Source: an uncultured Bacilli bacterium
Lineage (GTDB): Bacteria > Bacillota_I > Bacilli_A > RF39 > UBA660
Assembly (NCBI GenBank): GCA_947623995.1
Contig: CANQIN010000002.1
Location: forward strand, 1 to 51,336
Reading direction: 5' to 3'
DNA: 51,336 nucleotides
The notes beneath the pieces were generated by a model. That model did not search any database. It was not told the DNA's origin and worked only from the letters and a program-made list of their open reading frames with translations. Below, piece by piece: positions 4,506-50,208 of the stretch; the stretch's first letter is position 1, and each line of letters opens with the position of its first letter. The translations under genes and the position numbers were made by a program.

Positions 4506-4532
4506 AAAAAAAGCAGATAATTTTTTATCTAC
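4506..4532 (-). terminator. Intrinsic terminator of the 1534-aa surface protein gene
   Basis: Minus strand GTAGATAA-AAAA-TTATCTGC (7/8 bp) followed by T7. The stem includes the TAG stop codon. Confidence 0.6.
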
Positions 4533-7500
4533 TTATTTAATTTTTTTAAAGAATTTTTAATTCCAAAGACTAATACAATTAAACTTATAACAGCCATCAT
4601 AACATAAGTCATAATATTATCAACAGTTTGAGGATTTGAAACATTATTATCTACTTCTTCATTTTCAACAACTACATCACTTAATATTACTTCTAAATTA
4701 ATATCTTCATTTAATTTAGTATCTAATGTTATTTCTTCTTCATTTTTAATATTTTTAAAGCCTTTAAATTCTTTAGTTTCATCATGTTCCATTAATTTTT
4801 CTAATCTTTGTTTATCTTCATCATTTAAATCACTTAAAGATTGTCCTTCTTCTAATTTAAATTCTTCATCACCAATTGTTACAATAATATAATGTTTAAT
4901 ACTTAAATTTTTATTTTCATTAAGAACAGTATCTAAAAGAATTGTATTACCATCTTCATCAACAAATCTTACAAATCTTTCTTCTTTCATAATTTTTTCA
5001 ATTAATGAAAGTTCTTCACTACTTAAATCACTTAATTTAGAATTTTCATCTAAAACAAATTCATGTTCATTTAATTTAACAATAATTTTATAATTAGCTT
5101 TAACCACTATATCATCATTAACAATCATATCATAATCTAAATCTTCAACAACTTTATTATCTACTACAAATTCTTTAAATTGTTTATTGGTTGCTTCTTT
5201 TAATTTATTTAGAGCATTAACTATATCTTTATCATCACTTAATTTTTTACCTTCTTCTAATTTAAAACTTTCATCTCCAACAGTAACACTATTTTTATAT
5301 AATGCTTTAATTGTTAATGGTTCATTAATATTAGTATTTACTTCAACAGTATTACCATCTAAATCAACAAATCTTGAGAATTCTTTTCTATTTTTCTTTA
5401 AAGCTTCTAAAGCATTCTTAATACTTTCATTACTTTCTAAAGATTTACCCTCAATTAAATCATACACTTTATCATTTATTGTTACTTCTAAAGTAAAGAT
5501 ACTTTTTAAATCTACATTTTCATTTAAAACCGTAGTTTCTAAAACAGTATTACCATCTAAATCTTCAAATTTTAAGAATTTACGATCCTCTTTAATTTTA
5601 AAATTAGATAAATTAGCAAGATCACTTAAACTTTGTCCCTCATCAAGTAATTGTTCTATACCATCAATGCTAATTCTTATTGAATAATTAGCTTTAATGT
5701 TCATATCATCATTTACAACAGTTTCAAAATCAATTTCATTATTAATTACACCATCTACAACATATTCTTTAAATACTTTATTTGAAACATTTTTTAATTC
5801 ATTTAAAGCATCAACAATATCTTTTTCATCATTTAATTTCTTACCTTCTTCGATTTGATATTCTTCATCTTCTACCATAACAGTTTTAAAGTATAAAGCT
5901 TTAATGGTTATATTATCTGTTATAGGAGTAGCAGTTGTTATTGTATTACCATCTAAATCAACAAATCTTGAAAAATCACCATTATACATTAAATCATCTA
6001 AAGCTTGATATAATTCTAAATTTTGGGTAGCATCATTGCCTTCTGCTAAATCAAATTTATCACCAGTATTTTCAATTGTTACAGTAACTCCAAAGATAGC
6101 TTTAAGATTTATATGTTCTTTTAAAGGACTATCTTCACTAACAACATTACCATCTTCATCTTCAAATCTCAAAAATTTACGACCATCTTTAGTTTTAAAA
6201 TTAGATAAATCTTCAATATCACTTAAAAATTGTCCTTCATCTAAAGTTTTATTTTCACCATTAATAGTAACATTAATAGTATATTTAGGAGTTAATACAG
6301 CATTTTCACTAAACTCAGTATCGATATAATACTTATTACCACTAGCTTCAAAATAACTAAAATCTTTATTACCAGGATTTATAATACTATTTAATCTTAT
6401 TTTATCTTCATCAGTATCTTCTCTTAATAATATTTCATTTAATCTGTGATTTAAATCATCAAAGAAGAATACTTCTTCACCAATTTGAATACTCATTCCA
6501 TATTTAGGTGAAAGAGTCATATTTTCATGTAATTCCATATCAACTGGAATACCAATTCCATTCTCATCAATTAAATCAGCAAAATGTCTAGTTCCATCAT
6601 TTTTATATTCATCAATAATAGCCATAATATCTGCACTAGAACTTAAACTATTTCCTTCATCTAAAGTAAATTCTCCTTTATCAGTAATAGTAATGGTAAT
6701 TGTATAAGTAGCTACAATACTAATATCTTCACTAGCAACATAATCATCTAATGAATCATATTCAACACTATTTATTACATATTTTTTAAAATTCTTTTTA
6801 ACAACATCTTTTAAAGCATCTAAAGCACTTTTAAGTTCAGTATCTTCACTTAACATTTTTCCTTCTTCAATTTTATAAATATTCTCACCAATTTCAACAT
6901 TAATATTATAAAGGGCACTTATAGTTAAATTTTTAGTTATAACTTCATTAGTATTTACAGTATTTTTATCAACATCAACAAATCTAGAAAAATCTTTTTC
7001 ACTATCTTTTAAAGTTTCTAAAGCATTCATTATTTCTTCAGAATCTTCTAATTTTTTGCCCTCTTCTAAATCATAAATTTTACTATCAATTGTAATTTCA
7101 TAAGCAAATATAGCAGTTAATTGAATATTTTCATGTAAAGGATCTCTTTCATTTATAGTTTCTCCATTTGCATCTTCAAATCTCATAAATTTAAGACCAG
7201 CTTTAGTTTTATATGTTGATAATGTATCAATATTACTTAAAGATTGTCCTTCATCTAAAGTAATATCTTCAACATCATTAATTTTAACATTAATCGTAAA
7301 TTTAGGAGTTAATACAGCATTTTCATCAAAAACAGTTTCCATATCAACTGTATCTCCATTAGCATCTTCAAAATGCTTAAATGTTTTATTATCAGCTTTT
7401 TTATAATTTTCTAATTTGACTTTATCTTCATTAGTTAAATCACCTAATTTATGACCTTGTTCTTCAAAGAAGAAAACATCATCACCTATTTCGACACTTA

Positions 7501-9133
7501 TACCATATTTAGGTTTAAGAGTCATATTTTGATGTAATTCTTCAGTTAATGGAACACCAACTCCACCTTCATCAACTAAACCAGCATAATGTTTTGTTTT
7601 ATCATTATCGTATCCTTCAACAATTTCTAAAATTCGAGAATTAGAATTTAAAGTTTTTCCTTCATCAAAAGTAAATGTTTCTTCACCAATCTTAATTTCA
7701 ACTTGATATTTAGCAGTTATAGTTACATCTTTATTAAAGATATAATCATCATCAATTTCTTCATCATCTTGGTCTTTAAAACCTACAAATTTTTTAGTAT
7801 CAACACTTTCTAAAGCACTTATTTTATCTTTTACAGCTTCAGTTGCTTTAAAATCTTTAAATTTAGTATTTTCTTCTACTTCAAAATTTCCTTCTACGCC
7901 ATCTATTGTAACATTATAAAGTTTTACATAATTAGAATAAATATCCATATTCTTAGTTAATTCAGTTTCAACATTAAATTCTTTCTTTTCATTAGTATCA
8001 TCATCAATAAATTGATATCCTTTTAATCTATATCCTTCTTTTTCACTTGGTAATTCTTTTTGATTTATTTTAGCATTTTTATCATATGCTTTAACTGTTA
8101 AATTACCTTCATTATCATAAATTCCTACAACAACATAATCAGCATCTACATTATATTTATAAGGAACTGTTATTAATGATTCTTTATTATTTTTAGATAA
8201 AATAATATCTACGCCATTTTCAATATAAATAACATTACTATTATCAGCTGTATTACTTTTGCCAAAATTAAAGATTGCACTACCAGGAGCATTATTTTCA
8301 TCAACAATTTTAGAATTTCCTGTAATATTTAATTTAATATTTGAACAAGGGGTCTCGCCATCTAAAGAGAATATATATTCAGCATTAGGACTTTTCGAAT
8401 CATTACCTGTAACTATTGTATTATTAAGATTAATAGTTAAACCTTTTTCATTTTCAATAGATATTGCTTCTTCATTTTCATGAAGAGAAGAACGCGCACT
8501 AATGTTAGAATCATTAACATTGATAGTGTTATTTTCACCATTTAGAATATCAAAAGCTTTTTGTCCACTTATGTAACTATTATTATAAATATTAATTTCT
8601 ACATCAGAAGCAGCAAGTCTAATACCATCATATAATATTGAAAACATCGAATTATTAATGTCAATTTTAGAACCATTAGCACCATCAATATTTAAAACAG
8701 TTTGATAAACACCTTTATTTAAATTATCGCCGCGACCAATTGTCAGAAATGTAACTTTTTCTAAAGTAAGATTTACTTTTTTATTAACTTTAACATAATT
8801 CCAATTAAGATTCTTAGTTATTGGAACAGCTCTAATATTTTTAATTACAACATTATTTGGAGTATCATCTTCATCATCAATAATAATTTCACTATTAATT
8901 GTAGACCCTTCACCTTCAATAGTAAGATCTTTATTTATGATAATTTGAGTTCCTTCATTACCATAAGTTCCACCAGTTAATCTTAAAGTATCACCAACAT
9001 CAGCATTTTCGATTGCAGTTTTTAATGTTGTTGCCCCAGCATTAACTTTGGTAGTTTTAGCAAAAACACTAGGCATACCACACATCATACCTACACTAAC
9101 AACACTAATAAATTTAACAAGATTTTTTTTCAT
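4529..9133 (-). CDS. Giant repeat-rich surface protein with a candidate sortase-B type sorting signal
   Basis: Signal peptide MKKNLVKFISVVSVGMMCGMPSVFA. The N-terminal ~400 aa are N/G/I-rich and beta-helix-like. About 17 tandem modules of 62-72 aa follow. The C-terminus is NPQTVD, a hydrophobic helix, then KKLNK. Confidence 0.85.
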   Translation of the reverse strand: MKKNLVKFISVVSVGMMCGMPSVFAKTTKVNAGATTLKTAIENADVGDTLRLTGGTYGNEGTQIIINKDLTIEGEGSTINSEIIIDDEDDTPNNVVIKNIRAVPITKNLNWNYVKVNKKVNLTLEKVTFLTIGRGDNLNKGVYQTVLNIDGANGSKIDINNSMFSILYDGIRLAASDVEINIYNNSYISGQKAFDILNGENNTINVNDSNISARSSLHENEEAISIENEKGLTINLNNTIVTGNDSKSPNAEYIFSLDGETPCSNIKLNITGNSKIVDENNAPGSAIFNFGKSNTADNSNVIYIENGVDIILSKNNKESLITVPYKYNVDADYVVVGIYDNEGNLTVKAYDKNAKINQKELPSEKEGYRLKGYQFIDDDTNEKKEFNVETELTKNMDIYSNYVKLYNVTIDGVEGNFEVEENTKFKDFKATEAVKDKISALESVDTKKFVGFKDQDDEEIDDDYIFNKDVTITAKYQVEIKIGEETFTFDEGKTLNSNSRILEIVEGYDNDKTKHYAGLVDEGGVGVPLTEELHQNMTLKPKYGISVEIGDDVFFFEEQGHKLGDLTNEDKVKLENYKKADNKTFKHFEDANGDTVDMETVFDENAVLTPKFTINVKINDVEDITLDEGQSLSNIDTLSTYKTKAGLKFMRFEDANGETINERDPLHENIQLTAIFAYEITIDSKIYDLEEGKKLEDSEEIMNALETLKDSEKDFSRFVDVDKNTVNTNEVITKNLTISALYNINVEIGENIYKIEEGKMLSEDTELKSALDALKDVVKKNFKKYVINSVEYDSLDDYVASEDISIVATYTITITITDKGEFTLDEGNSLSSSADIMAIIDEYKNDGTRHFADLIDENGIGIPVDMELHENMTLSPKYGMSIQIGEEVFFFDDLNHRLNEILLREDTDEDKIRLNSIINPGNKDFSYFEASGNKYYIDTEFSENAVLTPKYTINVTINGENKTLDEGQFLSDIEDLSNFKTKDGRKFLRFEDEDGNVVSEDSPLKEHINLKAIFGVTVTIENTGDKFDLAEGNDATQNLELYQALDDLMYNGDFSRFVDLDGNTITTATPITDNITIKALYFKTVMVEDEEYQIEEGKKLNDEKDIVDALNELKNVSNKVFKEYVVDGVINNEIDFETVVNDDMNIKANYSIRISIDGIEQLLDEGQSLSDLANLSNFKIKEDRKFLKFEDLDGNTVLETTVLNENVDLKSIFTLEVTINDKVYDLIEGKSLESNESIKNALEALKKNRKEFSRFVDLDGNTVEVNTNINEPLTIKALYKNSVTVGDESFKLEEGKKLSDDKDIVNALNKLKEATNKQFKEFVVDNKVVEDLDYDMIVNDDIVVKANYKIIVKLNEHEFVLDENSKLSDLSSEELSLIEKIMKEERFVRFVDEDGNTILLDTVLNENKNLSIKHYIIVTIGDEEFKLEEGQSLSDLNDEDKQRLEKLMEHDETKEFKGFKNIKNEEEITLDTKLNEDINLEVILSDVVVENEEVDNNVSNPQTVDNIMTYVMMAVISLIVLVFGIKNSLKKLNK
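4680..7930 (-). repeat. In-frame tandem array of ~17 modules of 62-72 codons inside the giant protein, with a 5-module higher-order repeat
   Basis: Recurrent pattern (V/I)x(I/V)x...(L/F)xEGxxL.....F(S/K)(R/K)F(V/E)DxDGNT(V/I)....(I/L)xxNxx(L/I)xAxY, which is InlB-B-repeat/Flg_new-like. Modules 2-6 (EIKIGEETFTFDEGKTL...) are re-used as modules 7-11 (TITITDKGEFTLDEGNSL...). Confidence 0.8.
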
Positions 9134-9261: not shown

Positions 9262-10629
9262 TTAATTTTGAATTAATATAAACGGATTATCAATACTTCC
9301 ATATTCTAGTTCTGGATTAGGATTCGAACTTATTTTTACAGATGATTTTAAATAAACAACTGGTCTAATTTCATAAGCATTAAAAGCATTATACTGTGAA
9401 AAAAGCCCATCTCTTGCAAAACCCATAACTAAACCACCAGAATTTGCAGCTACATTTGGAGTAATACTCCATTCATATTTATTCAATAATATCCATATAT
9501 TATCATTACATCCATTTTTATCATATAAATACATTTCACTATTCAAACAATTATTTCTAATATTTCCACCACTTGCATAACCATAATCTGATGGATACAT
9601 TAAGCCAATTTTTCCAACCCACTCTGTAGTTCTATTAGTTGTATCATTACACAAATTACTATTTCCAGATTTAACACAAAAATCTTTCCCATTATTTTTA
9701 CTTCTTTCATAATCATACAAATAATATGGAAAAGTTATACTAGAAGTCCACTCTAAAGGTATTGTACCAGTATTCCATTTAATATTTGCTATCATACCTC
9801 TTACACTATTATCAATACCAACATTATCCCAAACAGGACATTCTTTAACATTATTATTAATGCCACTATAACATATTCCCCCACGATTTTCTTTATATAA
9901 ATAATCATTATTCAACACTTTTTGAATATCAGATTCACTCCATTCATTAACACCTTTACCATTATTTATATCAGGTGCACTACTATCCCAACTATAATTA
10001 CCCAAACTATCATTTTTAACAATTTTTAAATAACTTCCCATATTTTCAACTTTACTATCATCTTCACTTACTTCAATAATATTATTCATAATACCTAAAA
10101 CTCTCCATAATTCATTATTAAATTTAATATAATTATTAGGACCTACACCTATATATCTTAAATTATTATCTTTAGTACCTAATTTTTCTCCTAACACTTC
10201 TTTACCATCATAAGCTAAATTTACCTTATCAGTTTCACTTAATTTAGATATATAACAAAGTATACTATCACTACCATATTTATCACATAATTCTATTGAT
10301 TCTTTTTTTCTGAAATATAAACTACATTTTGTTTTACTTTTACTTAAATTCTTTACTAATGGTGCCCATTCTTCTTCATGCCAAATGATAGTTGCTCCAT
10401 TGTCACATTCTCCCCTACTAAATATTAAATCTTCAGAATTATCTTTCAAGGGCATTGCATTTAATTTCTCTTTTCCATTATAAAAAGCAAAATATACATC
10501 ATTATTATTAAAATTAAAATTTGTCTTAAAAAGTAAAAAAGAAACTCCTAACAATATAATAATACTTGCACCTATTACTATTAATTTTCTACTATTTATA
10601 TTTTTACTTAAAAAATTTTTCAACTTCAT
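9262..10629 (-). CDS. Paralog family member, class-I N-module with type-c C-module
   Basis: N-terminal basic stretch plus TM helix. The N-module is YFAFYNGKEKLNAMP..GECDNGATIIWHEEEWAPLVKNLSKSKTKCSLYF. C-module motifs are NNLRYIG, NNELWRVLGIMNN, GLMYPSDYGYA, RPVVYLKS and a DNPFILIQN tail. Confidence 0.85.
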   Translation of the reverse strand: MKLKNFLSKNINSRKLIVIGASIIILLGVSFLLFKTNFNFNNNDVYFAFYNGKEKLNAMPLKDNSEDLIFSRGECDNGATIIWHEEEWAPLVKNLSKSKTKCSLYFRKKESIELCDKYGSDSILCYISKLSETDKVNLAYDGKEVLGEKLGTKDNNLRYIGVGPNNYIKFNNELWRVLGIMNNIIEVSEDDSKVENMGSYLKIVKNDSLGNYSWDSSAPDINNGKGVNEWSESDIQKVLNNDYLYKENRGGICYSGINNNVKECPVWDNVGIDNSVRGMIANIKWNTGTIPLEWTSSITFPYYLYDYERSKNNGKDFCVKSGNSNLCNDTTNRTTEWVGKIGLMYPSDYGYASGGNIRNNCLNSEMYLYDKNGCNDNIWILLNKYEWSITPNVAANSGGLVMGFARDGLFSQYNAFNAYEIRPVVYLKSSVKISSNPNPELEYGSIDNPFILIQN

Positions 10630-10652
10630 AAAATCACCTATTCTATGAAGTA

Positions 10653-10685
10653 ATTATAACTCTTAAACCCCCCCCCCTGTGTCAA
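10653..10685 (-). promoter_or_regulatory. Switch promoter P1: TTGACA-CA-G10-TTTAAGAGT-TATAAT (21-nt spacer)
   Basis: -35 at 10685-10680; plus-strand C10 at 10668-10677; -10 at 10658-10653. A conserved leader AGAATAGGTGATTTT precedes the ATG at 10629. Confidence 0.7.
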
Positions 10686-10693
10686 CTATTTTC

Positions 10694-10722
10694 TTGCATT
10701 TTTTTATTATTTTTGCTATGAT
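10694..10722 (+). promoter_or_regulatory. Divergent plus-strand promoter (candidate sRNA promoter)
   Basis: TTGCAT (10694-10699), 17 nt, TGc-TATGAT (10717-10722, extended -10). It lies 8 bp from the -35 of P1. Confidence 0.6.
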
Positions 10723-10728
10723 GTATAT

Positions 10729-10850
10729 AGATGAAGGAAACTTCATACAATAAAAAAGAGATATATCTTGAATCGTTCAGATGTAATCCCAAAGTTTTGG
10801 TTATGCATCCGAAATCAACATATGTTGAAATCAGATGCTTTTGTTTTTTA
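10729..10850 (+). ncRNA. Candidate ~120-nt antisense sRNA convergent with the 33-aa peptide ORF
   Basis: It sits between the promoter at 10694-10722 and an intrinsic terminator, GCATCCGAAATCAACATATGTTGAAATCAGATGC (10805-10838) plus TTTTGTTTTTT. A 5' hairpin ATGAAG-GAAA-CTTCAT occupies 10731-10746. The only ORF from its 5' end runs through the terminator, so it is probably non-coding. Confidence 0.4.
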
Positions 10851-10949
10851 TCTTGCGATTAGTAACTTGATTACTATAATCAACAAGATAATTATAATTA
10901 ACAAAAAGATTATTATGCTATTATATAAAGCAAATTCTCTTTTAGACAT
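10848..10949 (-). CDS. 33-aa hydrophobic peptide (type I toxin-like candidate)
   Basis: SD GGCGGTGAT lies upstream of the ATG at 10949. The peptide is MSKREFALYNSIIIFLLIIIILLIIVIKLLIAR. Its stop codon is overlapped by the T-tract of the convergent terminator. Confidence 0.4.
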   Translation of the reverse strand: MSKREFALYNSIIIFLLIIIILLIIVIKLLIAR

Positions 10950-11027
10950 GTAATCACCGCCTTGCATTTTTAATAGTTAAAAATAAAAGGGGAAAACATC
11001 TGATCAACTCTCAATGTATCCAATATA

Positions 11028-11056
11028 ATTGTAACAAACTTTATTTTATAAAACAA
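11028..11056 (-). promoter_or_regulatory. Promoter of the 33-aa peptide transcript
   Basis: TTGTTT (11056-11051), 17 nt, TGt-TACAAT (11033-11028). The homologous element is at 13039-13067. Confidence 0.5.
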
Positions 11057-11085
11057 TATTTATGACATTTTGCCACACTTATAAA

Positions 11086-11172
11086 TTTAATTTTTTAAAT
11101 AGAAATATCTGATAATAAATGTTGTTTCATTACCTTTAGAATCTACCATAATAGTTCCTTTACTTTTTAGGT
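11086..11172 (-). pseudogene. Orphan copy of the 3' end of the histidine kinase gene (duplication scar)
   Basis: Translates as KSKGTIMVDSKGNETTFIIRYFYLKN*, compared with the true HK C-terminus SNGTIMVDSKDNETTFIIRYFY* at 13104-13190. No upstream HK sequence is present. Confidence 0.65.
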
Positions 11173-11248
11173 TTATTAGATAAATTAAAAATCTAGTATG
11201 TTTTTTTATTTACACACCAGATCCAGATTATACACTATCAACTTAATA

Positions 11249-12619
11249 CTACCGTGCAATGAACGGTGTTCCTTTTTCACCATTTCCATCTATAATTTTT
11301 GTAGAAGATTTTAGATATACAACAGGCAAAATATCACCATAATCACCTTCTCCAGCTGAGCAGCTACCGATACCAAAATCCATACTCACACAAAACACAG
11401 TATTACCATAATCTGCTGCTGGAGTAATTGTAAATGCATCATAGCCTAGCATTAACCAATCATTTGTGTTACAACTATCACTAACATATGAAACCATACT
11501 TTTTCCTAAACATATTTCTCTTACTTCTCTTCCTACAGCATATCCGTAGTCACTAGGATAAATTAAGCCTATATATCCATCCCATGTTGTTGTTCTTTCT
11601 ACTTCATCATTACAATATCTATTATTACTCTCACATTGTTCCTTACCATTATGAGTACTTCTTTCTCCCTCATACATATATTTTGCTGATATTTTGCTAC
11701 TATAATATTTTTCACCTATCGTTCCCGTATTCCATCTTACTTTAGCTATCTTTTTCTTTGCTTCTTCACTTATTCCACTACTTGTAAAATCACATGGCTT
11801 ATAACTACTGTTATTTTTATAACAATATCCATTTTCCCTATTCCAATACAAACTTCTTCCTATTTCTGGGATTCCACTATATATATCTTGAGGATTTAAT
11901 AATTTCATTATATCTGCTTGACTCCATTCATTTACTCCCTGACCATAATTTATTTCTGATTCACTAATATCCCAACTAAAATAACCTATACTTCCTGTTC
12001 TTATTATTTTTAATAAGCTTTCTTGTTGTCCGCCATTATCTAAATTAGTTATATTATTCATGACTCCTATTATTCGCCATAATATTGGATTACCATCACC
12101 ATCACTATCTCCTATATCTATATAATTATTTACATCTGCATCTGCTCCTACATATCTTAGATTTGCATCATTTGTATCATCAACCCATAAATTTGTTGTA
12201 TCTGTTTTAGCTAAATCAATAATATAATCAGCAGCATTTGGCTCATATTCTTTAAAATATAAGCTACATTTGGTTTTACTTTTACTTAAGTTCTTTACTA
12301 TTGGTCCCCATGTTTCACTATCCCATATTATACTGGCTCCATTATCACATTCACCATGGTCAAATACTAAATTTTCTTCATTACCTTTCTGAGGCATTTC
12401 ATCTAATTCTTCATCACCTTTATAAAACGCAAAATAAATATCACTGTTACCAAAATAATCTACTTTTCCCTTCATCATTGGAAACTCTGCACTTTCTGTA
12501 AAAGATGCGAATGTTTTGTATAGAATTAATGATACACTTATTAAGACTATTACACTTATAGTTATTAGTATTGTTCTTCTTCTTTTTTCATTTTTATCAA
12601 CATACTTTTCTAGCTTCAT
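11249..12619 (-). CDS. Paralog family member, class-I N-module with type-a C-module
   Basis: N-terminus MKLEKYVDKNEKRRRTILITISVIVLISVSLILYKTFASFTESAEFPMMKGKVDYF. N-module ..GECDNGASIIWDSETWGPIVKNLSKSKTKCSLYF. C-module motifs NNYIDIGDSDGDGNPILWRIIGVMNN, NGKEQCE, YCNDEVERTTTWDGYIGLIYPSDYGYA and PVVYLKS. Confidence 0.85.
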   Translation of the reverse strand: MKLEKYVDKNEKRRRTILITISVIVLISVSLILYKTFASFTESAEFPMMKGKVDYFGNSDIYFAFYKGDEELDEMPQKGNEENLVFDHGECDNGASIIWDSETWGPIVKNLSKSKTKCSLYFKEYEPNAADYIIDLAKTDTTNLWVDDTNDANLRYVGADADVNNYIDIGDSDGDGNPILWRIIGVMNNITNLDNGGQQESLLKIIRTGSIGYFSWDISESEINYGQGVNEWSQADIMKLLNPQDIYSGIPEIGRSLYWNRENGYCYKNNSSYKPCDFTSSGISEEAKKKIAKVRWNTGTIGEKYYSSKISAKYMYEGERSTHNGKEQCESNNRYCNDEVERTTTWDGYIGLIYPSDYGYAVGREVREICLGKSMVSYVSDSCNTNDWLMLGYDAFTITPAADYGNTVFCVSMDFGIGSCSAGEGDYGDILPVVYLKSSTKIIDGNGEKGTPFIAR

Positions 12620-12642: not shown

Positions 12643-12674
12643 ATTATAACCCTTAACCCCCCCCCCTATGTCAA
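12643..12674 (-). promoter_or_regulatory. Switch promoter P2: TTGACA-TA-G10-TTAAGGGT-TATAAT (20-nt spacer)
   Basis: -35 at 12674-12669; plus-strand C10 at 12657-12666; -10 at 12648-12643. Leader AGAATAGAGTGATAAA precedes the ATG at 12619. Confidence 0.7.
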
Positions 12675-12717: not shown

Positions 12718-12856
12718 AGATGAAGGAAACTTCATATAATAAAAAAGAGATATATCTAATTATTCGTGTAATTGGATACTCTCCAAAAAAGTTTTTGTTT
12801 TTTTTGAAAAAGCCCTTTTAACACAAATGAGTGAAAAGGTGCTTTTTCTTTTTATT
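12718..12856 (+). ncRNA. Candidate ~140-nt antisense sRNA, second copy
   Basis: The first ~45 nt match the 10729 copy (the ATGAAG-GAAA-CTTCAT hairpin), then the sequences diverge. The terminator AGCCCTTTTAACAC..GTGAAAAGGTGCT (12811-12843) plus TTTTTCTTTTT ends 5 nt before the convergent peptide stop codon. Confidence 0.4.
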
Positions 12857-12860: not shown

Positions 12861-12962
12861 TTATTTAAAAATTAATAAAAACATTAGCATAAATACTAAT
12901 AGAAATATTAATGTGAATAAAAATTTGATTATATGATAAAAGATGTGTTCTCTTTTATTCAT
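12861..12962 (-). CDS. 33-aa hydrophobic peptide (type I toxin-like candidate), second copy
   Basis: Strong SD AAGGAGG lies 6 nt before the ATG at 12962. The peptide is MNKREHIFYHIIKFLFTLIFLLVFMLMFLLIFK. Confidence 0.45.
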   Translation of the reverse strand: MNKREHIFYHIIKFLFTLIFLLVFMLMFLLIFK

Positions 12963-13038: not shown

Positions 13039-13067
13039 ATTATAGCAAACTTTATTTTATAAAACAA
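13039..13067 (-). promoter_or_regulatory. Promoter of the second 33-aa peptide transcript
   Basis: TTGTTT (13067-13062), 17 nt, TGc-TATAAT (13044-13039). Confidence 0.5.
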
Positions 13068-13103
13068 TATTTATGCATTTTACCACATTTATAAATTTAT
13101 TTT

Positions 13104-14306
13104 TTAATAAAAATATCTGATAATAAACGTTGTTTCATTATCTTTAGAATCTACCATAATAGTTCCATTGCTTTTTAATATAATAGCTTTTGCTAAAGAA
13201 AGCCCTATTCCTATACTTTCTTTTAAAGAAGAATCATAATGATAAAATCTTTCAAATAAATGTTTTTTATCTTCACTACTTAAAACTTTTCCATAATTAG
13301 TTATCTTAACTTCACTATAAAGATTATTTTCTTCTAAATTAATTAATACTTCACTTTTCTTTTTAGAATGTTCAATAGCATTTTTTAAAATATTAGTAAT
13401 TGCTTCTACATTCCAATCTTTATCACAATTAATAGTTGTTTTATTTTTTCCTTTTACAATAATTTTAATATCTTTTAAATCACATAAAGAAGAAACATTT
13501 AAAATTGCTTTATTAATAATGGTAATTAAATTATGAGGTTCACTTTTAAATTCAATCATATTAACTTCTAATTTTGATAATTTTAATAAATTAGTTATTA
13601 AAAATTTCATATTATTTATTTCTCTTTTAATACTTCTTAAAGCTTCTTCTTTTTTAATATCAAGATTTTCTTCATCAAGTATATTATCAACAGTAATTAA
13701 TATGGCTGTTAAAGGAGTTTTTAATTGATGAGTTATATTTTCTAATGATTCTTTTAATTCTAATTTATCTTTTTTAGAATTAATAGCTGTTTCTTTTAAC
13801 ATAACGGTTGTCTTATAAATTTCATCTCTTAATTTAGATAATTCATCTTCACTCATACTTTCTAATTTTAAAGAATAATTCTGATTATTAAGTTCTTTTA
13901 AATAATTAGTTATTTCATTTAATTCTTTATTTCTTTTTCTAAAATATAATCTAAATAAATATATAATAATTAATAAACTTAAAAAGATAAAAGCAAAATT
14001 TAAATAATTAAAATAATTTTTTAAAGAATTATTTTTTAAAATTACTGATTCTTCATTAATATCAATACTATACTTTTTTAAAAATTCTTCATTAAAATTA
14101 TTAGAATTTAAGATGTTAATAAGTTCATTATCTTCAATATGATATTTTTCTTTTACATTATTTATAATACTAACAATTGCTAAATTATAATTTTTAGTTA
14201 AGCTTTTATTTTCTAATGATATTAAAACAACTAAAGTAACACTTAGAGTAAGACTAACAATTAAACTTAAAAGATAATATTTTTTTAATTTAAGATTATT
14301 CTTCAT
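13104..14306 (-). CDS. Sensor histidine kinase (two TM helices, HisKA plus HATPase_c)
   Basis: H-box ITHQLKTPLTAI, N-box NILKNAIEHS and G-box-like GIGLSLAKAI. It overlaps the response regulator gene by 11 nt. Confidence 0.85.
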   Translation of the reverse strand: MKNNLKLKKYYLLSLIVSLTLSVTLVVLISLENKSLTKNYNLAIVSIINNVKEKYHIEDNELINILNSNNFNEEFLKKYSIDINEESVILKNNSLKNYFNYLNFAFIFLSLLIIIYLFRLYFRKRNKELNEITNYLKELNNQNYSLKLESMSEDELSKLRDEIYKTTVMLKETAINSKKDKLELKESLENITHQLKTPLTAILITVDNILDEENLDIKKEEALRSIKREINNMKFLITNLLKLSKLEVNMIEFKSEPHNLITIINKAILNVSSLCDLKDIKIIVKGKNKTTINCDKDWNVEAITNILKNAIEHSKKKSEVLINLEENNLYSEVKITNYGKVLSSEDKKHLFERFYHYDSSLKESIGIGLSLAKAIILKSNGTIMVDSKDNETTFIIRYFY

Positions 14307-14943
14307 CTATCCGATACCCTATTCCTTTCAATGTATTAACAATATCACTATCTAATTTTTTCTTTAAACGATTAAAATAAACCGTTACAGTATGATCATC
14401 AACATCATTGCCAGTTAAATTCCAGATTGTATCAAGTATCATACTCCTTGATACAACATGATTAAGATTTAAAAATAAAAGATTTAAGAGTTGAAGCTCT
14501 AAGGGTGTTAAAGAAAGGGGAATATTATTTTTATAAACAATCATTTTATCAAAATCATAAGTAATATCTTTTACTTTAATAATATTCTTATTTATTTTTA
14601 AAATTTTATTGATACGCGCAATTAATTCTTTGATACTAAAAGGTTTAGTAAGATAATCATCAGCTCCCATATTAAGACCATTTACAATATCTTCTTCAGA
14701 ATCAAAAGCTGTTAAAATAATAGTCGGAATATTAATCTTTTTAATAACATTTTTAAAGAAATCAAAACCATTACCATCAGGCAAAGAAATATCTAAAATT
14801 ATTAAATTAGGTTTAGTAGATTCTAGATATTTCCTTGCTAAAGATAAAGATGTTTTAACAATAAGTTCATAACCATTTTTTTCTAATGATTCTTTAAGAG
14901 ACTTTCCAATATTGATATTATCTTCAATTAATAATATTTTCAT
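14296..14943 (-). CDS. OmpR/PhoB-family response regulator
   Basis: Receiver domain MKILLIEDN..ILDISLPDGNG..LTA..KPF. The C-terminal winged-helix region is LTPLELQLLNLL..GIGYRI. Confidence 0.9.
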   Translation of the reverse strand: MKILLIEDNINIGKSLKESLEKNGYELIVKTSLSLARKYLESTKPNLIILDISLPDGNGFDFFKNVIKKINIPTIILTAFDSEEDIVNGLNMGADDYLTKPFSIKELIARINKILKINKNIIKVKDITYDFDKMIVYKNNIPLSLTPLELQLLNLLFLNLNHVVSRSMILDTIWNLTGNDVDDHTVTVYFNRLKKKLDSDIVNTLKGIGYRIDEE

Positions 14944-14974
14944 CACTCATCACTCCTTTAGTATACTAAAAAAG

Positions 14975-17554
14975 TTAAATATTTTCATTACGAATTGTTT
15001 CAATTATATTTTGTTTCTTTATTTTATTTAAAGAATAGTTCATAATTAAATTAATAATTAAGAAAACTACTACAAAACAGATAATTATACTTAAATAAGG
15101 AATAGGAAATTTAGCCCCTTCACTACTTAATAATTTATGAATTATAAATGATAAGATAAGACCAATAGGAACACCAAATAATAAGGCTTTTACCCCAATA
15201 AAAATACTTTCTAATCTAATCATTTTTTGAAATTCTTTACTAGTCATACCAATTGATTTTAAAATCGCAAATTCTGGTTTTCGTAAATTCATATTAGTAG
15301 TAATTGTATTAAAAATATTAGTTATTCCAATTAATGATATAACAATTATAAAGCCATATAAGAAAATAGCAATTAATGTATATAAGTTTTTCATCATTTG
15401 ATAATTTTCTTCTAAATTATTAAGATTATAATTAGTATCTTTTAACATTACATCAATATCATCTTGTAATTTATTTGGGTCACTTGATAATAAATAAATT
15501 GCTAAGTTTTCATCTTTATATAAACTACTTGCATATTCATTACTAATTACAAGCATTTCGGATAAATAATTTTGAAGTCCAAAAGGTTTTTGATTAGTAA
15601 CATACGCAATAGGAAGATTAAGGTTTTTATCAAAAACATTAAGATTAATTAATTCATTTTGCTGATAATCAAAACTTCGTAATACATATTTTTCCACTTT
15701 ATCATTAGCATCTTGTTTTCTAATTTGTAATTCATCAATTAAGATTCCTTCATCTTTTACTTCATCATAATTAAGATTTAGAGAGTCTAAATATTTACGA
15801 TACTGATAATCTCCTAAAGTAACAAGTAAGATTCGATCACTTTCATAAGATTTAAGATTAAGAAGTTTAATATAATCAGGATTATATTTAGGTTTAATAA
15901 TATCAACATCATTACTAGAAATTACACTATAGTCATTAATGGTATCTAAATTAGTAATATTTTTAATAGTTTCAAAATTATTAATATCAGTAGAAGTTAA
16001 TGATAAATTAAATTCAATACTATTTATTTCATCTTTAACTGCTACAAAAGCAACGTTAATAAATGTTGATAAAGCAATAAAGACAAAGATGGATACAATT
16101 AAAGATATAACCGTTGTCCGATATTTCTTTTTATTTCTTTTTATATTTTTATAAGATATCTCGCCACCAATACCAAAGAAGTGATTAATTAATTTTGGAC
16201 TTCTTAATTTATTACCTTTAATTTTAATTTCTCCACTATTACGTAAAGAAGAAATAGGCGAAATCTTACCTGCTTTACGGGCACTTTTAAAAGCTGAAAA
16301 ATAAACAGTTACAATTCCTAGGATAATCGCAATTAAACAAGCAAGATAAGAGAATTTAAAAACTAATTTTAAATCAGTAGCTAACATATCCTTTAAAAAA
16401 TAATTACTTACCTCTACTAAAATGAAAGATGCTAAAAGACCAAATAATAAACCAAAGATAATTCCAACAACTCCTAAAATACTAGCTTCAAAGAAAACAT
16501 TTTTTCTAATTTGTTTTTTAGTAGCTCCAATACTTTTTAACATACCATATTGTTTAATTTTTTCCGTTATCGAAATATCAAAGCTATTTTTAATACAAAA
16601 AACACTTGAAACAATAATAATTAAACAAACAATAATAATTACAAAACCTAAACCACCAATCCCACTATTATTAATAGGATCAGTTTGCAATGATATTAGA
16701 TAATCATTTATATTAATTTGATATTTAGCTTTCGATATTTCCTTTATAATATCTTTTTTATCATCTTCATGATAAGTTCCATTATAGTATATTTTATAAG
16801 TTTCTTCATCAATACCTAAAATATTAGCTGTGGTATTCAAATAATTTTTTAAGTCTTTTTTCTTATACAATGTATAGACATTAACATTACTATTTATTTC
16901 ATTTTCATTTACATGAGTTATAAATGTGTAACCAGGTGCTTCATAAGATTCAATATTACTAGCTGGTCTTGATATAATTCCAACTATTTTATAAGTAATC
17001 GGTTTAGTATCAATAATTTTTTCATTTCTTTGATAAGGATTATTTTGCTTTAAAATAACATTATCATCAAGATTAATTCTTTTACCAACATCTAAGGTTA
17101 TTTCATCCCCAATATTTAATTCTAAACGCCCATTAGTTTTTAAATGCATGGGAATCACAATTTCATGATCATTTAAAGGTAGTCTTCCATTAACTAAATT
17201 AATTGATAAATTTTCTAAAGAATCATTAGTAAATCCTTTAACAAAAGCATAAGGCTTATCTTCATTTTTTGTGTTTATCTTGGCATATCCAACATCACTA
17301 GTTAAAAAAATCTTTTCTACTTGCCGATTATTTTTAATGTTATCAACTTCTTTTATGGGCACATCATAAAAACTAACATGAAAGTTGCCTCTTTCTTTGG
17401 TTTCAAATAAAACTAAAGATGATAATAAACTTGCATACATTGTACATACAGCCGTTACTAACGCAACAGATAAAGTAATCCCAATAATAGTCACAATGGT
17501 TCTTTTCTTATTTAAGGATAGATTTTTAATTGTTAATTTTTTAAACAGATTCAT
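14975..17554 (-). CDS. ABC transporter permease with two FtsX-type domains (BceB/MacB-like)
   Basis: 859 aa with multiple TM segments. The motif (M/I)LKSIG(A/M)T(K/S)K(Q/E) occurs twice, each time after a large extracytoplasmic region. Confidence 0.8.
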   Translation of the reverse strand: MNLFKKLTIKNLSLNKKRTIVTIIGITLSVALVTAVCTMYASLLSSLVLFETKERGNFHVSFYDVPIKEVDNIKNNRQVEKIFLTSDVGYAKINTKNEDKPYAFVKGFTNDSLENLSINLVNGRLPLNDHEIVIPMHLKTNGRLELNIGDEITLDVGKRINLDDNVILKQNNPYQRNEKIIDTKPITYKIVGIISRPASNIESYEAPGYTFITHVNENEINSNVNVYTLYKKKDLKNYLNTTANILGIDEETYKIYYNGTYHEDDKKDIIKEISKAKYQININDYLISLQTDPINNSGIGGLGFVIIIVCLIIIVSSVFCIKNSFDISITEKIKQYGMLKSIGATKKQIRKNVFFEASILGVVGIIFGLLFGLLASFILVEVSNYFLKDMLATDLKLVFKFSYLACLIAIILGIVTVYFSAFKSARKAGKISPISSLRNSGEIKIKGNKLRSPKLINHFFGIGGEISYKNIKRNKKKYRTTVISLIVSIFVFIALSTFINVAFVAVKDEINSIEFNLSLTSTDINNFETIKNITNLDTINDYSVISSNDVDIIKPKYNPDYIKLLNLKSYESDRILLVTLGDYQYRKYLDSLNLNYDEVKDEGILIDELQIRKQDANDKVEKYVLRSFDYQQNELINLNVFDKNLNLPIAYVTNQKPFGLQNYLSEMLVISNEYASSLYKDENLAIYLLSSDPNKLQDDIDVMLKDTNYNLNNLEENYQMMKNLYTLIAIFLYGFIIVISLIGITNIFNTITTNMNLRKPEFAILKSIGMTSKEFQKMIRLESIFIGVKALLFGVPIGLILSFIIHKLLSSEGAKFPIPYLSIIICFVVVFLIINLIMNYSLNKIKKQNIIETIRNENI

Positions 17555-18224
17555 GACTATCCTCCACTATTTTACCATCAGCAATTTTAATAATTCGATC
17601 AGCACATTTAGCAATTTCCATATTATGAGTAATCATTAATATAGTTTGATTATATTCTTTATTTGATTTCATTAAAAGGGCAATAACTTCTTCACTAGCT
17701 TTTGAATCTAAATTACCAGTTGGTTCATCAGCAAGTATTAAAGCTGGACTCGTTATTAAGGCTCTTCCAATACTTGTTCTTTGTTGTTCTCCTCCCGATA
17801 ATTCATTAGGCAAATGAGCTTTTCTTTTTTCTAATCCAAGTAATTTTAACATTTCATTTATCTTTTCATCACTAACACTTCTTTTATCTAATGAAAGTGG
17901 TAAAGTTATATTTTCAACAACATTTAAAATTGGTAATAAATTATAAAATTGATAAATAAACCCTACTTGTCTTCTTCTAAAAATTGCTAATTTATCATCA
18001 TTTAATTTATATATATCATTACTATCAACAAAAACTTTTCCACTAGTAGGTTTATCTAACCCTCCAATTAAATGTAAAAGAGTCGACTTCCCACTTCCAC
18101 TAGCTCCAACAATAGCTACAAATTCTCCTTTATTAACTTTAAAACTAACATTGTCTAAAGCTGTAACTTTAGTTTCTCCTTTTCCATATACTTTACATAA
18201 ATTTTCAACTCTTAAAATTTCCAT
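17541..18224 (-). CDS. ABC transporter ATP-binding protein (MacB/BceA-like)
   Basis: Walker A GASGSGKST, signature LSGGEQQR and Walker B LILADEPT. It overlaps the permease start by 14 nt. Confidence 0.9.
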   Translation of the reverse strand: MEILRVENLCKVYGKGETKVTALDNVSFKVNKGEFVAIVGASGSGKSTLLHLIGGLDKPTSGKVFVDSNDIYKLNDDKLAIFRRRQVGFIYQFYNLLPILNVVENITLPLSLDKRSVSDEKINEMLKLLGLEKRKAHLPNELSGGEQQRTSIGRALITSPALILADEPTGNLDSKASEEVIALLMKSNKEYNQTILMITHNMEIAKCADRIIKIADGKIVEDSHESV

Positions 18225-19903: not shown

Positions 19904-21622
19904 TTAAAAAGCCAAAACAAGTCGAAAACTATCCCATTTTGCTAAACTGCCATATGCTTCATAAGAACGGAATATACCAGAACCAATGCCATCAGTGAAA
20001 TGGCCACCACGTCTAACCCATGGTCCAGCCGAATAGACAATCCAAGCCTCATCGTCATACCAACTGCCTACATATCTTGACTGTGTTAAATACTTCATAC
20101 TTTGGAACGGGCCCATTTCTTTTGTTGCATCTCCTAAAAAGCTTCGATTATATGATGTATTGCTTGTACTATAAGCGTATTTATCATAATATCTTTCATC
20201 GGTTGGTAAGGCAATTCCTTCTGTTACTTCTGAAATATTGTGATTTATTTCTACTCCACTATCATTACATTCTGGACATGTTAATTTTCCTATAAATCCT
20301 GAATTATATGCATTATGCCGTCCTGATGATAATTTTCCAGTATGACCATCTCCTGTTGAATTGTCATCCATTCCAGCCATCATAGTTTCCCAAGATCCTC
20401 CACTCATGTCATATATTCCACTGTAATTTCCAGTTGTACTTGCTACCACACTTGCTTTATTAAAATAATTGGTGTTATACTCACCATCAGCTCCAGGTGA
20501 TGATACACCTCCATATTCATTGCAAGCATCAGGTGTATTACTACATAACTCATTTGTTCCTGTATATCCTGTAGTTGGTTCACGTATTGCAGCATAACCT
20601 GTTAAATAATTGGAATTATTATTGATTCTTACACTTTCATGACTTCCATACACACTATGTTGTAAATAGGCTACGGCTCCCCATTCACTATTTTTCATCA
20701 TATGACTTTTTAAAGACTCTTCATAATGTAATCCCACTATGTATGCTTTTGCTACTTGAATACTTCTCCATGAATATACATTTGGTTTAATTATGACTTT
20801 ATTTGCTGCTTCTATAGAAGCTGCTTCATCACTAGGATTTATCTCTGCAACTTGTGTTCTTTCTGCTCCATCATATCCAGTTTCAAATTTTCCTACCCAT
20901 ATTCCATTGGTATTAAATGATGTGAAGGCTGGATGGGTTAACCATTCACCTTGTTTACTTCCATTTTGTACTTCTTCATCTTTTGTTTCAAATATCACAT
21001 TAATTATTTGTTCTTTATTTGTTTTCGTTGTTAATCCATTATAATTTCCTTCATCAAATATTTGATATCGATATCTGGGGATCCATACAAAATAACTTTC
21101 AATATCTCTTTCTTCTATTGGTTCATTTTCTCCTGGGTCTTCTACACCACTTCTTAATATGACTGCATTTGCCCACTTTTGAGCTCTATAATCATACCAC
21201 TTTTCTTTTTCACTTGCTCTTGTTACTAGTCCATTTTCTTCATTTATTACTATTGGTATTAATTTACTACTTAATTCTGGATCTGCTCCATTTAATTCTC
21301 TATCTATATATTTATTATTAAAATATAAAGTACACTTAGTTTTATTTTTTCTTAAATTCTTTATTAATGGAGCCCATTCTTCACTATTCCATTCAATACT
21401 TGCTCCATTATCACATTCTCCATCTATATAAACTAATCCTTCACTATTTTCTTTACTTGGCATTTCACTTATTTTTTCTTTTCCTTTATAAAAGGCTATA
21501 TCTATATTTTCATTACTATTTTCATTTATTAATAATTTTTCATAGTTTGTAAATGTTAATATATTTAATCCACTTATTAATATCACAATAATTATTAACA
21601 TTATATTTAATTTTTTCTTCAT
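19904..21622 (-). CDS. Paralog family member, class-I N-module fused to an unrelated FGE-sulfatase/SUMF1-like C-domain (type d)
   Basis: N-module IAFYKGKEKISEMP..GECDNGASIEWNSEEWAPLIKNLRKNKTKCTLYF. The C-terminal part has HPAF..GIWVGKFE, GIYDMSGGSWE, RRGGHF and a FRLVLAF end, and lacks the NLRYIG/PSDYGYA motifs. Confidence 0.8.
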   Translation of the reverse strand: MKKKLNIMLIIIVILISGLNILTFTNYEKLLINENSNENIDIAFYKGKEKISEMPSKENSEGLVYIDGECDNGASIEWNSEEWAPLIKNLRKNKTKCTLYFNNKYIDRELNGADPELSSKLIPIVINEENGLVTRASEKEKWYDYRAQKWANAVILRSGVEDPGENEPIEERDIESYFVWIPRYRYQIFDEGNYNGLTTKTNKEQIINVIFETKDEEVQNGSKQGEWLTHPAFTSFNTNGIWVGKFETGYDGAERTQVAEINPSDEAASIEAANKVIIKPNVYSWRSIQVAKAYIVGLHYEESLKSHMMKNSEWGAVAYLQHSVYGSHESVRINNNSNYLTGYAAIREPTTGYTGTNELCSNTPDACNEYGGVSSPGADGEYNTNYFNKASVVASTTGNYSGIYDMSGGSWETMMAGMDDNSTGDGHTGKLSSGRHNAYNSGFIGKLTCPECNDSGVEINHNISEVTEGIALPTDERYYDKYAYSTSNTSYNRSFLGDATKEMGPFQSMKYLTQSRYVGSWYDDEAWIVYSAGPWVRRGGHFTDGIGSGIFRSYEAYGSLAKWDSFRLVLAF

Positions 21623-21681: not shown

Positions 21682-21742
21682 TATTTAATTATTATTTTAA
21701 ACCACTTTTAACTATAATTTTTTTAAGAAAATTATTATTCAT

Positions 21743-23363: not shown

Positions 23364-23403
23364 AACACATTCTCCTTGTATAACTATTATTTTTATTATC
23401 AAT

Positions 23404-25598: not shown

Positions 25599-26945
25599 TC
25601 AAAATGTTAATCGAAAAGGATTATCTATTGAACCGTAATTATCACTTTCATCTGATTCAATATAGACTTTATTATTTAAATATACAGTTGGTAAAATATT
25701 TGCTTCCTGATTTACATCACCCCAATAAATACCACTCATAGTAGAACTTATAGCAGTTTTATTAGAATTATCAAAATGAGTAGTTAAAAACCAATGACTA
25801 TCAGTATACAACCAATTAATATTTTCAATTGTATAACATGTACTATCAAAATCTAGTAATTTTTTTTCTAAGCAAGTTTCTCTATCATTTGCAACTGCAT
25901 AGCCATAATCTGATGGATAAATTAACCCAACTCCATTATGATATTTTGAATCATTTTCTCTGGTCCATACACTTGGATAGCCACTTTCTTTTACTGAAAC
26001 ACTTCTTTCTTTTTCATACATCGTTGGTGCATTATATATATCATTTGGTTCACCCAAATTCCATATAACATCTTTATCAATCATCAGCCTTGCTTCTTCA
26101 TTTAATCCTTTTGAATTTATATTATCTTGAGTAAAATCACATTCTGTTGGAATAGGATTATTTACATCTTGATAGCAATCACCAATCTCACTATTATAAT
26201 ATATGCCATTTAACATATCTTTTAAAGTTGAAGTTGTCCAATCATTATTATATGTAGATTTATAATCCCAACTATAATATCCTAAATCATCCATAAAGTG
26301 AAAATCTTCATTTTCATCAGTCCAAAATACATTTGAAATTCTTGTTAATTTTACTCTTTGTTCTATTCCACTATCAGTTTGAACGTTTACGAGTCCAATA
26401 ATTCTCCATATTTCATCATTAAATGCTATATAATTATTAGGATCTTCTCCAGCATATCGATATTCTATTTTATTCCAGCCACTATCTATTTCAGTAACAC
26501 TATGATCTACTTTATACAATCCATCACCAGTCTCTACAATAGGAATATCTCTATTTAATTGAAAACCAGTTTGTTCTTTAAAATATAAGCTACACTTTGT
26601 CTTTACTTTTTTTAATCCTTTTACTAATGGGGCCCATTCATTGTTGTTCCATTCAATACTTGCTCCATTATCACATTCACCATGGTCAAATACTAAATTA
26701 TCTGGATTATCTTTTACTGGCATCGTATCTAACTGTTCATCACCTTTATAGAATGCAAAATAAATATCGCTATTACCAAAATAATCAACTTTTCCTTTCA
26801 TCATTGGAAATTCTGCACTTTCCGTAAAACTTGCAAAGGTTTTATATAGAAGTAATGAGACACTTATTAAGACTATTACACTTATACTTATCAATATTGT
26901 TTTTCTTCTTTTCTTACTTTTATCTTCATATTTTTTTAGCTTCAT
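25599..26945 (-). CDS. Paralog family member, class-I N-module with type-b C-module
   Basis: N-terminus ..YKTFASFTESAEFPMMKGKVDYFGNSDIYFAFYKGDEQLDTMP..GECDNGASIEWNNNEWAPLVKGLKKVKTKCSLYF. C-module motifs EYRYAGEDPNNYIAFNDEIWRIIGLVNV, LKDMLNGIYYNSEIGDCY, GLIYPSDYGYA, PTVYL and DNPFRLTF. Confidence 0.85.
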   Translation of the reverse strand: MKLKKYEDKSKKRRKTILISISVIVLISVSLLLYKTFASFTESAEFPMMKGKVDYFGNSDIYFAFYKGDEQLDTMPVKDNPDNLVFDHGECDNGASIEWNNNEWAPLVKGLKKVKTKCSLYFKEQTGFQLNRDIPIVETGDGLYKVDHSVTEIDSGWNKIEYRYAGEDPNNYIAFNDEIWRIIGLVNVQTDSGIEQRVKLTRISNVFWTDENEDFHFMDDLGYYSWDYKSTYNNDWTTSTLKDMLNGIYYNSEIGDCYQDVNNPIPTECDFTQDNINSKGLNEEARLMIDKDVIWNLGEPNDIYNAPTMYEKERSVSVKESGYPSVWTRENDSKYHNGVGLIYPSDYGYAVANDRETCLEKKLLDFDSTCYTIENINWLYTDSHWFLTTHFDNSNKTAISSTMSGIYWGDVNQEANILPTVYLNNKVYIESDESDNYGSIDNPFRLTF

Positions 26946-37955: not shown

Positions 37956-37981
37956 TATTATCACTCAATTCTATAATTTAT

Positions 37982-48365: not shown

Positions 48366-48395
48366 ATTACCAATCCCTATTCTTAAGTTATTTAA

Positions 48396-50178: not shown

Positions 50179-50208
50179 ATTACCAATCCCTATTCTTAAG
50201 TTATTTAA

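Follow-up and report, generated by a model that had tools for sequence, protein, structure and literature searches.

Two perfect promoter hexamers separated by a run of ten G residues raise the question of whether such a promoter can switch. Phase variation by simple-sequence repeats is textbook knowledge for a few pathogens (Neisseria, Haemophilus, Campylobacter, Treponema and mycoplasmas), and variation in gut commensals has mostly been attributed to invertible promoters. We examined the promoter, here termed P1, within its window (the whole stretch of 51,336 nt of DNA from an uncultured Bacilli bacterium) and compared it with related loci in other assemblies. The coordinates of the features are collected in Table 1.

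The P1 module and its copies

On the minus strand, P1 reads TTGACA, CA, GGGGGGGGGG, TTTAAGAGT and TATAAT, and the ATG of the first paralog lies at 10629-10627. Both hexamers agree perfectly with the sigma-70 consensus. The transcription start near A10646 was inferred from the position of the −10 box. The sequence and coordinates of P1, the ATG at 10629, the spacer of 21 nt, a TTGCAT hexamer at 10694-10699 and a gap of 8 bp between the −35 boxes had all been given in the preliminary description, and all of them matched. The tract is a mononucleotide run of a length at which slippage is expected (~7-8 nt or more). Its placement between −35 and −10 is read from the sequence of a predicted promoter.

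The window has a GC content of 26 %. Six C10 runs were found on its plus strand (at 10668, 12657, 21664, 26981, 33055 and 34635), and every other run of C or G was at most 5 nt long. In 100 dinucleotide-preserving shuffles, the full P1 pattern was expected 0.00 times. P1 is not unique, however. The window holds six copies of this module, and the divergent partner of P1 is duplicated at P2. All six modules follow a common layout on the minus strand: TTGACA, 1-2 nt, G10, 7-10 nt, TATAAT, a conserved leader with AGAATAG(A)GTGAT, and ATG.

All six leaders carry an inverted repeat directly 3′ of the −10 box (ACTCTA-AGAA-TAGAGT or ACCTA-AGAA-TAGGT). The arms of this repeat co-vary, and none of 2000 permutations was as good. 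The repeat occurs family-wide and spans the predicted transcription start (its P1 part lies within 10630-10652), so that the start site of P1, and hence the assignment of its −10 box, is not secure. The repeat could function as an operator or form a 5′ hairpin, or it could indicate that the start has been mis-assigned.

Another box, GTGGTyyAAAATAAT, starts 24-25 nt upstream of the −35 in 32 of 49 family modules (loci L001-L070). In the window, it was detected near P3 (about 21706-21720), P5 and P6, and it is absent at P1, P2 and P4. It may act as an UP-like element or bind a regulator specific to the family. Directly upstream of P6 lies a gene for an ISL3-family transposase (34824-36158, minus strand).

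Table 1. Features of the window and of related loci. Positions without a locus name refer to the window.
Feature	Position	Strand	Remarks
Promoter P1	10653-10685	−	−35 TTGACA, CA, G10, TTTAAGAGT, −10 TATAAT; spacer 21 nt
P1 −35 TTGACA	10685-10680	−	
P1 CA	10679-10678	−	
P1 G10 homopolymer	10668-10677	−	C10 on plus strand; presumed slippage-prone element
P1 TTTAAGAGT	10667-10659	−	
P1 −10 TATAAT	10658-10653	−	
P1 discriminator and leader	10630-10652	−	Shine-Dalgarno GGTGAT 10638-10633; predicted start near A10646
Paralog 1, 455 aa	9262-10629	−	N-terminal hydrophobic helix, ~65-aa conserved beta module, ~300-aa C-type-lectin-like region (predicted)
Promoter P2	12643-12674	−	G10 12657-12666, spacer 20 nt; predicted to drive paralog 11249-12619
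Promoter P3	21650-21681	−	G10, spacer 20 nt; predicted to drive paralog 19904-21622
Promoter P4	26968-26998	−	G10, spacer 19 nt, TG 5′ of −10 (TGCTATAAT); predicted to drive paralog 25599-26945
Promoter P5	33039-33071	−	G10, spacer 21 nt; predicted to drive paralog 31690-33015
Promoter P6	34621-34652	−	G10, spacer 20 nt; predicted to drive paralog 33263-34597
Divergent promoter at P1	10694-10722	+	TTGCAT 10694-10699, 17 nt, TATGAT 10717-10722
Candidate small RNA at P1, ~120 nt	10729-10850	+	Three hairpins; terminator hairpin 10806-10839, T-run 10840-10849
Divergent unit at P2	12683-12711 (promoter), 12718-12853 (RNA candidate)	+	
Divergent units in relatives	L019:682-505, L008:1946-1783, L014:1826-1697		
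Small ORF, 33-aa hydrophobic peptide	10848-10949	−	MSKREFALYNSIIIFLLIIIILLIIVIKLLIAR; upstream of P1 module
Counterpart small ORF	12861-12962	−	Upstream of P2 module; strong Shine-Dalgarno
Coding-sequence tracts, Lapin-018 bin51	L010:40 and 2315; L011:30 and 2390; L042:2572		

The genes downstream of the tracts

The six genes downstream of the tracts are paralogs with 25-47 % identity. Common to them are the N-terminal hydrophobic helix and a module of ~65 residues rich in invariant positions; the C-terminal parts vary more. The genes are scattered among htpG, rpsL-rpsG-fusA-tuf, a murA-like gene, trxB, htrA and genes for an amidase and a sortase. Searches of the paralogs against Pfam (even at E ≤1), NCBIfam and PDB sequence profiles returned no family; sequence profiles thus did not place them in DUF6273, DUF1566 or the C-type-lectin-like Pfam families. 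One distant homolog, P0105, carries PF19789.

AlphaFold2 gave a confident model of paralog 1 (33 homologs; pLDDT 87.7, pTM 0.82). With Foldseek, the sole significant neighbour in the PDB was the IgA peptidase of Thomasclavelia ramosa (9qa6; E 6.5e-7, 341 columns), the N-terminal domain of which is C-type-lectin-like (PMC12237041). Among viral models, paralog 1 matched DUF6273-type proteins of gut phages (E about 5e-7). The TM-scores of the matches by which the fold was judged similar were modest, about 0.3. The fold comparison gave the only lead, and from it we read the products as secreted or surface ligand-binding proteins with a C-type-lectin-like fold.

Comparison of paralog 1 with a 76 % identical ortholog gave a dN/dS of 0.275 at a dS of 0.49, and purifying selection acts on this gene. 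A protein search returned >4,000 homologs of the family. Among GTDB representative genomes, the family was found only in rabbit-gut ('Lapin') MAGs (43 loci); one of these carries the label Clostridia and all others the label uncultured Bacilli.

Several other genes of the window were recorded. Six large ORFs (522-1534 aa; 4529-9133, 21786-23402, 36372-37964, 42867-44435, 46740-48404 and 48574-50217, all on the minus strand) had no Pfam match and no G-tract promoter, and they may encode further surface proteins. Those at 46740 and 48574 are apparently tandem paralogs, since their start regions gave identical results in the duplex calculations described below. An Abi_2 (abortive-infection-like) gene (39186-40112, minus strand) adjoins htrA. 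Paralog 2 is directly preceded upstream by a Bce-like module (13104-18224, minus strand), which comprises an OmpR-type response regulator and a histidine kinase together with an ABC ATPase and a MacB/FtsX permease; we found no link between this module and the tract-bearing genes.

Tract lengths in related modules

We compared 49 distinct modules of the family, including those of the window. The tract was G10 in 35 modules (71 %), G9 in nine (18 %), G11 and G12 in one each and G6 in two, and one module had the interrupted tract G6AGG. Tract length is thus polymorphic among related loci, as in phase-variable promoters, with a range of 6-12. Among copies with identical flanks, both G9 and G10 occurred, and the non-G part of the spacer did not compensate for the difference. 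The uninterrupted tract of P1 has been kept across a dS of about 0.49, with spacers of 21 and 20 nt in the two orthologs.

Within the strain, the tracts of P1 to P6 were G10 in every assembly that covers them (three other samples: ERZ27249377, -363 and -368). Two further loci, compared over 3-4 samples, were G10 throughout, and so was the 76 % ortholog from another sample. No consensus difference in tract length was found at the same locus across samples, for the six window loci and the two others. Assemblies report the consensus only, and minority alleles of the tract are hidden in them. The preliminary description had named a fixed tract length as an observation that would speak against a switch. 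At the level of the assembly consensus the length is indeed fixed. A fixed consensus is compatible with switching, because in tprL of T. pallidum one length dominates (about 81 % of a near-clonal strain) and is accompanied by minority variants; G8 is active in that promoter and G10 is at about background (PMC7864442).

In one rabbit-gut genome (Lapin-018 bin51), members of the paralog family contain poly-G tracts inside the coding sequence, just before the conserved motif HGICDNGA. One of the five tracts, a G10, leaves its gene in frame. The other four (G8, G9, G11 and G11) are frameshifted, and each of these genes could be restored by a change of 1-2 nt. Such mixed frames are the classic signature of translational contingency loci. 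They are evidence that the gene family as a whole rather than a single site is under repeat-mediated control.

At three loci (L064:2394, L034:4105 and L020:4468; cf. L066 and L067), the DNA after a −35 box and a short G-run is foreign and homologous among the loci (...Gn, then AGA...GCCTTATAATAC). The right flank at one locus differs between samples, and an ORF similar to a C5 DNA methyltransferase follows one copy. In addition, two contigs (L005 and L065) end inside tracts. An element may integrate at the tract.

Spacing between the hexamers

We scanned JGI metagenomes with a pattern anchored on the −35 box, at least five G, the −10 box and the leader, allowing spacers of 14-26 nt. Four real low-GC matches were obtained. 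Their tracts were G10, G7/8, G7 and G11, and the total spacer was exactly 17 nt in all four. Such compensation strongly supports a role of the hexamers as −35 and −10 boxes, and selection on their spacing.

Tract-less promoters of paralogs in the rabbit-gut lineage read TTGATA-18-TATATT and TTGCAT-18-TATAAT, the divergent promoter next to P1 has a spacer of 17 nt, and the family promoter at L070 has one of 18 nt. Because the tract-less promoters of the lineage use 17-18 nt, the spacers of the window (19-21 nt) are predicted to be suboptimal and P1 to be weak or off at G10; with 21 nt, P1 exceeds the spacing of the lineage by 3-4 nt. Almost no member of the family combines a spacer of 17-18 nt with TATAAT as −10, so that the 'on' allele is essentially unseen. 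The conserved quantity is the tract length, G10, and not the total spacer. A constant G10 could fit a mutational equilibrium near G9/G10, as reported for Campylobacter, and could also fit a G10-specific function.

We also considered TATATA (within TATATAAT) as the −10 box of many relatives, which would give spacers of 17 or 18 nt. This is a weak alternative, since it lacks the −7 T that is critical in sigma-70 promoters, and it is inapplicable to the six promoters of the window.

The divergent promoter and a candidate small RNA

The preliminary description had placed a plus-strand promoter back to back with P1. On the plus strand, the −35 box of P1 (TGTCAA, 10680-10685) is followed after the 8-bp gap by TTGCAT, which matches the −35 consensus at three of six positions. 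A generic promoter scan was uninformative in the AT-rich DNA of the window, where 40 promoter-like sites were observed and 35±5.7 expected, i.e. chance level. The divergent promoter is unconvincing on sequence alone, and we accepted it because of its conservation. Four species have kept the hexamers, their spacing of 17 nt and a unit of ~120 nt that ends in a terminator, and all five copies of the unit abut a G-tract promoter back to back, which bears out the arrangement.

The ~100 bp upstream of P1 and of P2 are about 97 % identical, as against only about 65 % for the 5′ ends of the coding sequences. In MAGs of other species (L019, L008 and L014), the divergent block is 94-99 % identical, and the neighbouring paralog proteins are about 40 % identical. 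In L014, the sequence of the spacer has diverged, but TTGCAT, the spacing of 17 nt and a −10 box (TACTAT) are kept. No further copies of the unit were found in the JGI metagenome scan or among relatives of paralog 2.

The predicted transcript begins with an invariant segment of ~45 nt, and its 5′ hairpin, ATGAAG-GAAA-CTTCAT, is invariant. In the second hairpin, the 5′ half is conserved, and the 3′ half with which it pairs differs between two sequence types. The plus-strand terminator, a hairpin with a T-run, differs in sequence and keeps its position. Covariation in the hairpins is suggestive, coming from five copies of 2-3 types. The RNA candidate at P1 folds with a dG of −30.7 kcal/mol (z = −3.7). 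Rfam 15 was searched with the whole window at gathering thresholds and with 10600-11260 at E ≤1, and nothing matched; a tRNA search of the window found none.

Two other explanations of the unit were rejected. As a peptide gene it is not conserved, because the ORF from the ATG at 10731 has 43 aa and its counterparts at P2, in L008 and in L014 (with an indel of 1 nt) have 33, 12 and 24 aa, respectively. Pairing of the divergent RNA with leaders or start codons of the paralogs was dropped, as the duplex energies were unremarkable among 35 genes. We regard the predicted divergent transcript as a candidate small RNA of about 120-135 nt.

The divergent unit stands in the place of the GTGGT box that is found upstream of most other family promoters. 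The G tract precedes the divergent −35 by 16-25 bp and the divergent start by about 50-60 bp. It thus lies outside the divergent core, and therefore its length alters neither the geometry of the divergent promoter nor the 8-bp gap between the −35 boxes. Competition of the two promoters for RNA polymerase, as proposed in the preliminary description, is a conjecture. The small ORFs upstream of the P1 and P2 modules (MSKREF... and MNKREH...) are conserved as ORFs in both copies. Still further upstream, 11040-11140 forms another conserved block, which shares about 91 % identity with 13051-13148.

Comparison with known systems

In tp0126 of T. pallidum, the spacer between the −35 and −10 boxes contains a poly-G tract, and a total spacer length of 17 nt gives the best expression (PMC7864442). 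As in the T. pallidum loci (tp0126; tprE/G/J, tprF/I and tprL), poly-G tracts of ~7-12 nt are found here in the promoters of a paralogous family of presumed surface proteins. T. pallidum is a spirochaete pathogen and its genes encode outer-membrane porins, whereas the present genes belong to an uncultured low-GC gut Firmicute and encode putative lectin-like secreted proteins. Moreover, at every locus the modal allele here exceeds the optimum by 2-4 nt, and the present family, known from sequence alone, is much larger.

In the vlp genes of M. hyorhinis, insertions and deletions in a homopolymer within the −35/−10 spacer switch transcription on or off (PMC2268961). Like vlp (and also M. arthritidis maa2 and M. 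mycoides vmm), the present genes form a multigene family with a separate, highly conserved promoter for each gene and a homopolymer in the spacer. As in vlp, a conserved N-terminal leader is combined with a divergent region, which in vlp is the exposed one. The vlp tract is reportedly poly-A. The Vlp proteins are lipoproteins of a wall-less organism encoded at one clustered locus; here the tract is poly-G, and the genes lie dispersed between housekeeping genes and encode no lipoproteins.

In N. meningitidis, the length of a promoter homopolymer (poly-G in the spacer of porA, poly-C at opc) sets the level of transcription as a volume control, as summarized in PMC7864442. A similar volume control by homopolymer length is proposed here. 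porA and opc are single genes of a Gram-negative pathogen, and common porA alleles are at or below the 17-nt optimum, whereas the alleles here are above it.

The divergent fimbrial promoters of hifA and hifB in H. influenzae are tied to one simple-sequence repeat (van Ham et al. 1993, as cited in PMC11868660). P1 and its partner likewise are two divergent promoters associated with one such repeat. In hif, a TA repeat is said to lie in the overlapping spacers of both promoters, so that one repeat controls both. Here, the tract lies only in the P1 spacer and outside any overlapping core of the two promoters, and the partner is a non-coding unit of ~120 nt rather than a gene. The arrangement is not of the hifA/hifB type, because the repeat is not common to both promoters.

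The translational poly-G contingency genes of Campylobacter and Neisseria have their counterpart in the bin51 relatives, with G8-G11 in the coding sequence and mixed frames. The tract of P1, unlike these, sits in a promoter. By analogy, the mechanism proposed below is already known, from T. pallidum tp0126 and tpr, M. hyorhinis vlp and N. meningitidis porA. New are the lineage, the gene family and its size, the placement of tracts in promoters as well as in coding sequences, the long modal spacers and the divergent RNA-like unit.

Interpretation and alternatives

We consider it probable, on comparative sequence evidence, that P1 is a slipped-strand simple-sequence-repeat contingency promoter, either phase-variable or acting as a 'volume knob'. 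The element would be a sigma-70-type promoter in which a slippage-prone G10 inside the spacer separates a perfect −35 from a perfect −10. The majority allele, G10, would misalign the hexamers, so that the gene is expressed weakly or not at all. In a minority of cells, the tract would contract by slipped-strand mispairing, which would realign the hexamers and raise expression. Each copy of the promoter would individually control one lectin-like secreted or surface paralog. With six such genes in the window and dozens per genome in relatives, a population would then contain a mixture of surface-protein repertoires. We infer the hypermutability of the tract in this organism, the 'on' length, the reversibility and the biological role.

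The preliminary interpretation as a whole is partly upheld. Its term 'switch promoter' has indirect but good comparative support, from tracts of 6-12 at homologous promoters, from G9 and G10 on identical flanks, from the frameshifts in bin51, from the compensation to 17 nt and from the retention of the tract; switching itself was not seen. Several observations speak against a contingency promoter. P1 would need a contraction of 3-4 nt, which is far for an efficient switch, and the length did not vary at the six loci, at the two further loci or in the 76 % ortholog. To these come the conservation of tract length instead of total spacer, the near absence of an 'on' allele and the insecure −10 assignment noted above.

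The same constancy is what a fixed, selected promoter element would show. G10 would then be active as it stands, through the geometry of the spacer or a factor that recognizes it, and the gene would be regulated conventionally, for example via the GTGGT box or the divergent RNA. We regard this as unlikely, and it is the alternative that we take most seriously. It fits the unchanged G10 in all strain assemblies and in the ortholog, its share of 71 % among distinct modules, and its constancy while the non-G part of the spacer varies between 9 and 11 nt. Purifying selection on the genes implies that they must be expressed, and the upstream box, which keeps its distance of 24-25 nt in 32 of the 49 modules, suggests a dedicated regulator. 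A fixed element does not account, however, for G9, G11 and G12 on identical flanks or for the mixed frames of the coding-sequence tracts. Canonical spacing rules apply, because the distant examples have 17 nt and the tract-less promoters 17-18 nt. Finally, G runs of 9 or more are, to our knowledge, hypermutable in every bacterium examined, which also speaks against this alternative.

Rather improbable in our view, but related, is the idea that the length of the tract itself is read and not the spacing of −35 and −10. A long G:C spacer would be used through a tract-specific factor or through DNA geometry. The P1/P2 subtype, coupled to the promoter of the small RNA, would form a two-output device in which the state of the switch sets the output of regulatory RNA.

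Alternatively, the tract might be transcribed and act in the 5′ untranslated region, through RNA structure or polymerase slippage, with transcription starting near the GTGGT box or reading through from the small ORF. The co-varying inverted repeat begins 2 nt after TATAAT, and if it is an RNA hairpin, the start must be further upstream. In the P1 copy, the hairpin after the small ORF lacks a T-run on the minus strand, so read-through towards P1 is possible. This explanation is nevertheless very unlikely, as it leaves unexplained why TTGAC(A/T) and TATAAT are conserved in about 50 copies and why the distant spacers are compensated to exactly 17 nt.

We give even less credence to the view that the −35 box and G-run are a hotspot of recombination or integration, or a mobile promoter cassette, and that tract length is incidental. 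The homologous foreign DNA after the −35 and G-run at three loci, the flank that differs between samples and the two contigs ending within a tract would be expected under this view. They concern, however, 3-4 of about 55 copies, and the copies in the window have an intact −10, leader and gene; the 17-nt compensation would again be unexplained. That the tract is an artefact of sequencing or assembly can practically be dismissed: errors are frequent in homopolymers and the data come throughout from short-read metagenome assemblies, but the tract is found at the same position between conserved flanks at about 55 loci in independent samples and assemblies, and the strain assemblies are identical.

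Whichever way P1 works, an uncultured low-GC lineage of gut Firmicutes carries dozens of poly-G-associated genes for lectin-like, presumably secreted proteins. The placement of the tract differs by lineage, being in the promoter in some and in the coding sequence in others. The proteins resemble receptor-binding domains of phages and the substrate-side domain of a gut IgA protease. The divergent small-RNA-like unit, which matches no described family, is an additional lead. If P1 and its relatives are indeed contingency promoters that switch, they would constitute a large, previously undescribed system of contingency genes in the mammalian gut microbiota. The states of the switches would be readable directly from metagenomic reads, and the system would be a candidate determinant of interactions with host, mucus, phages or antibodies.
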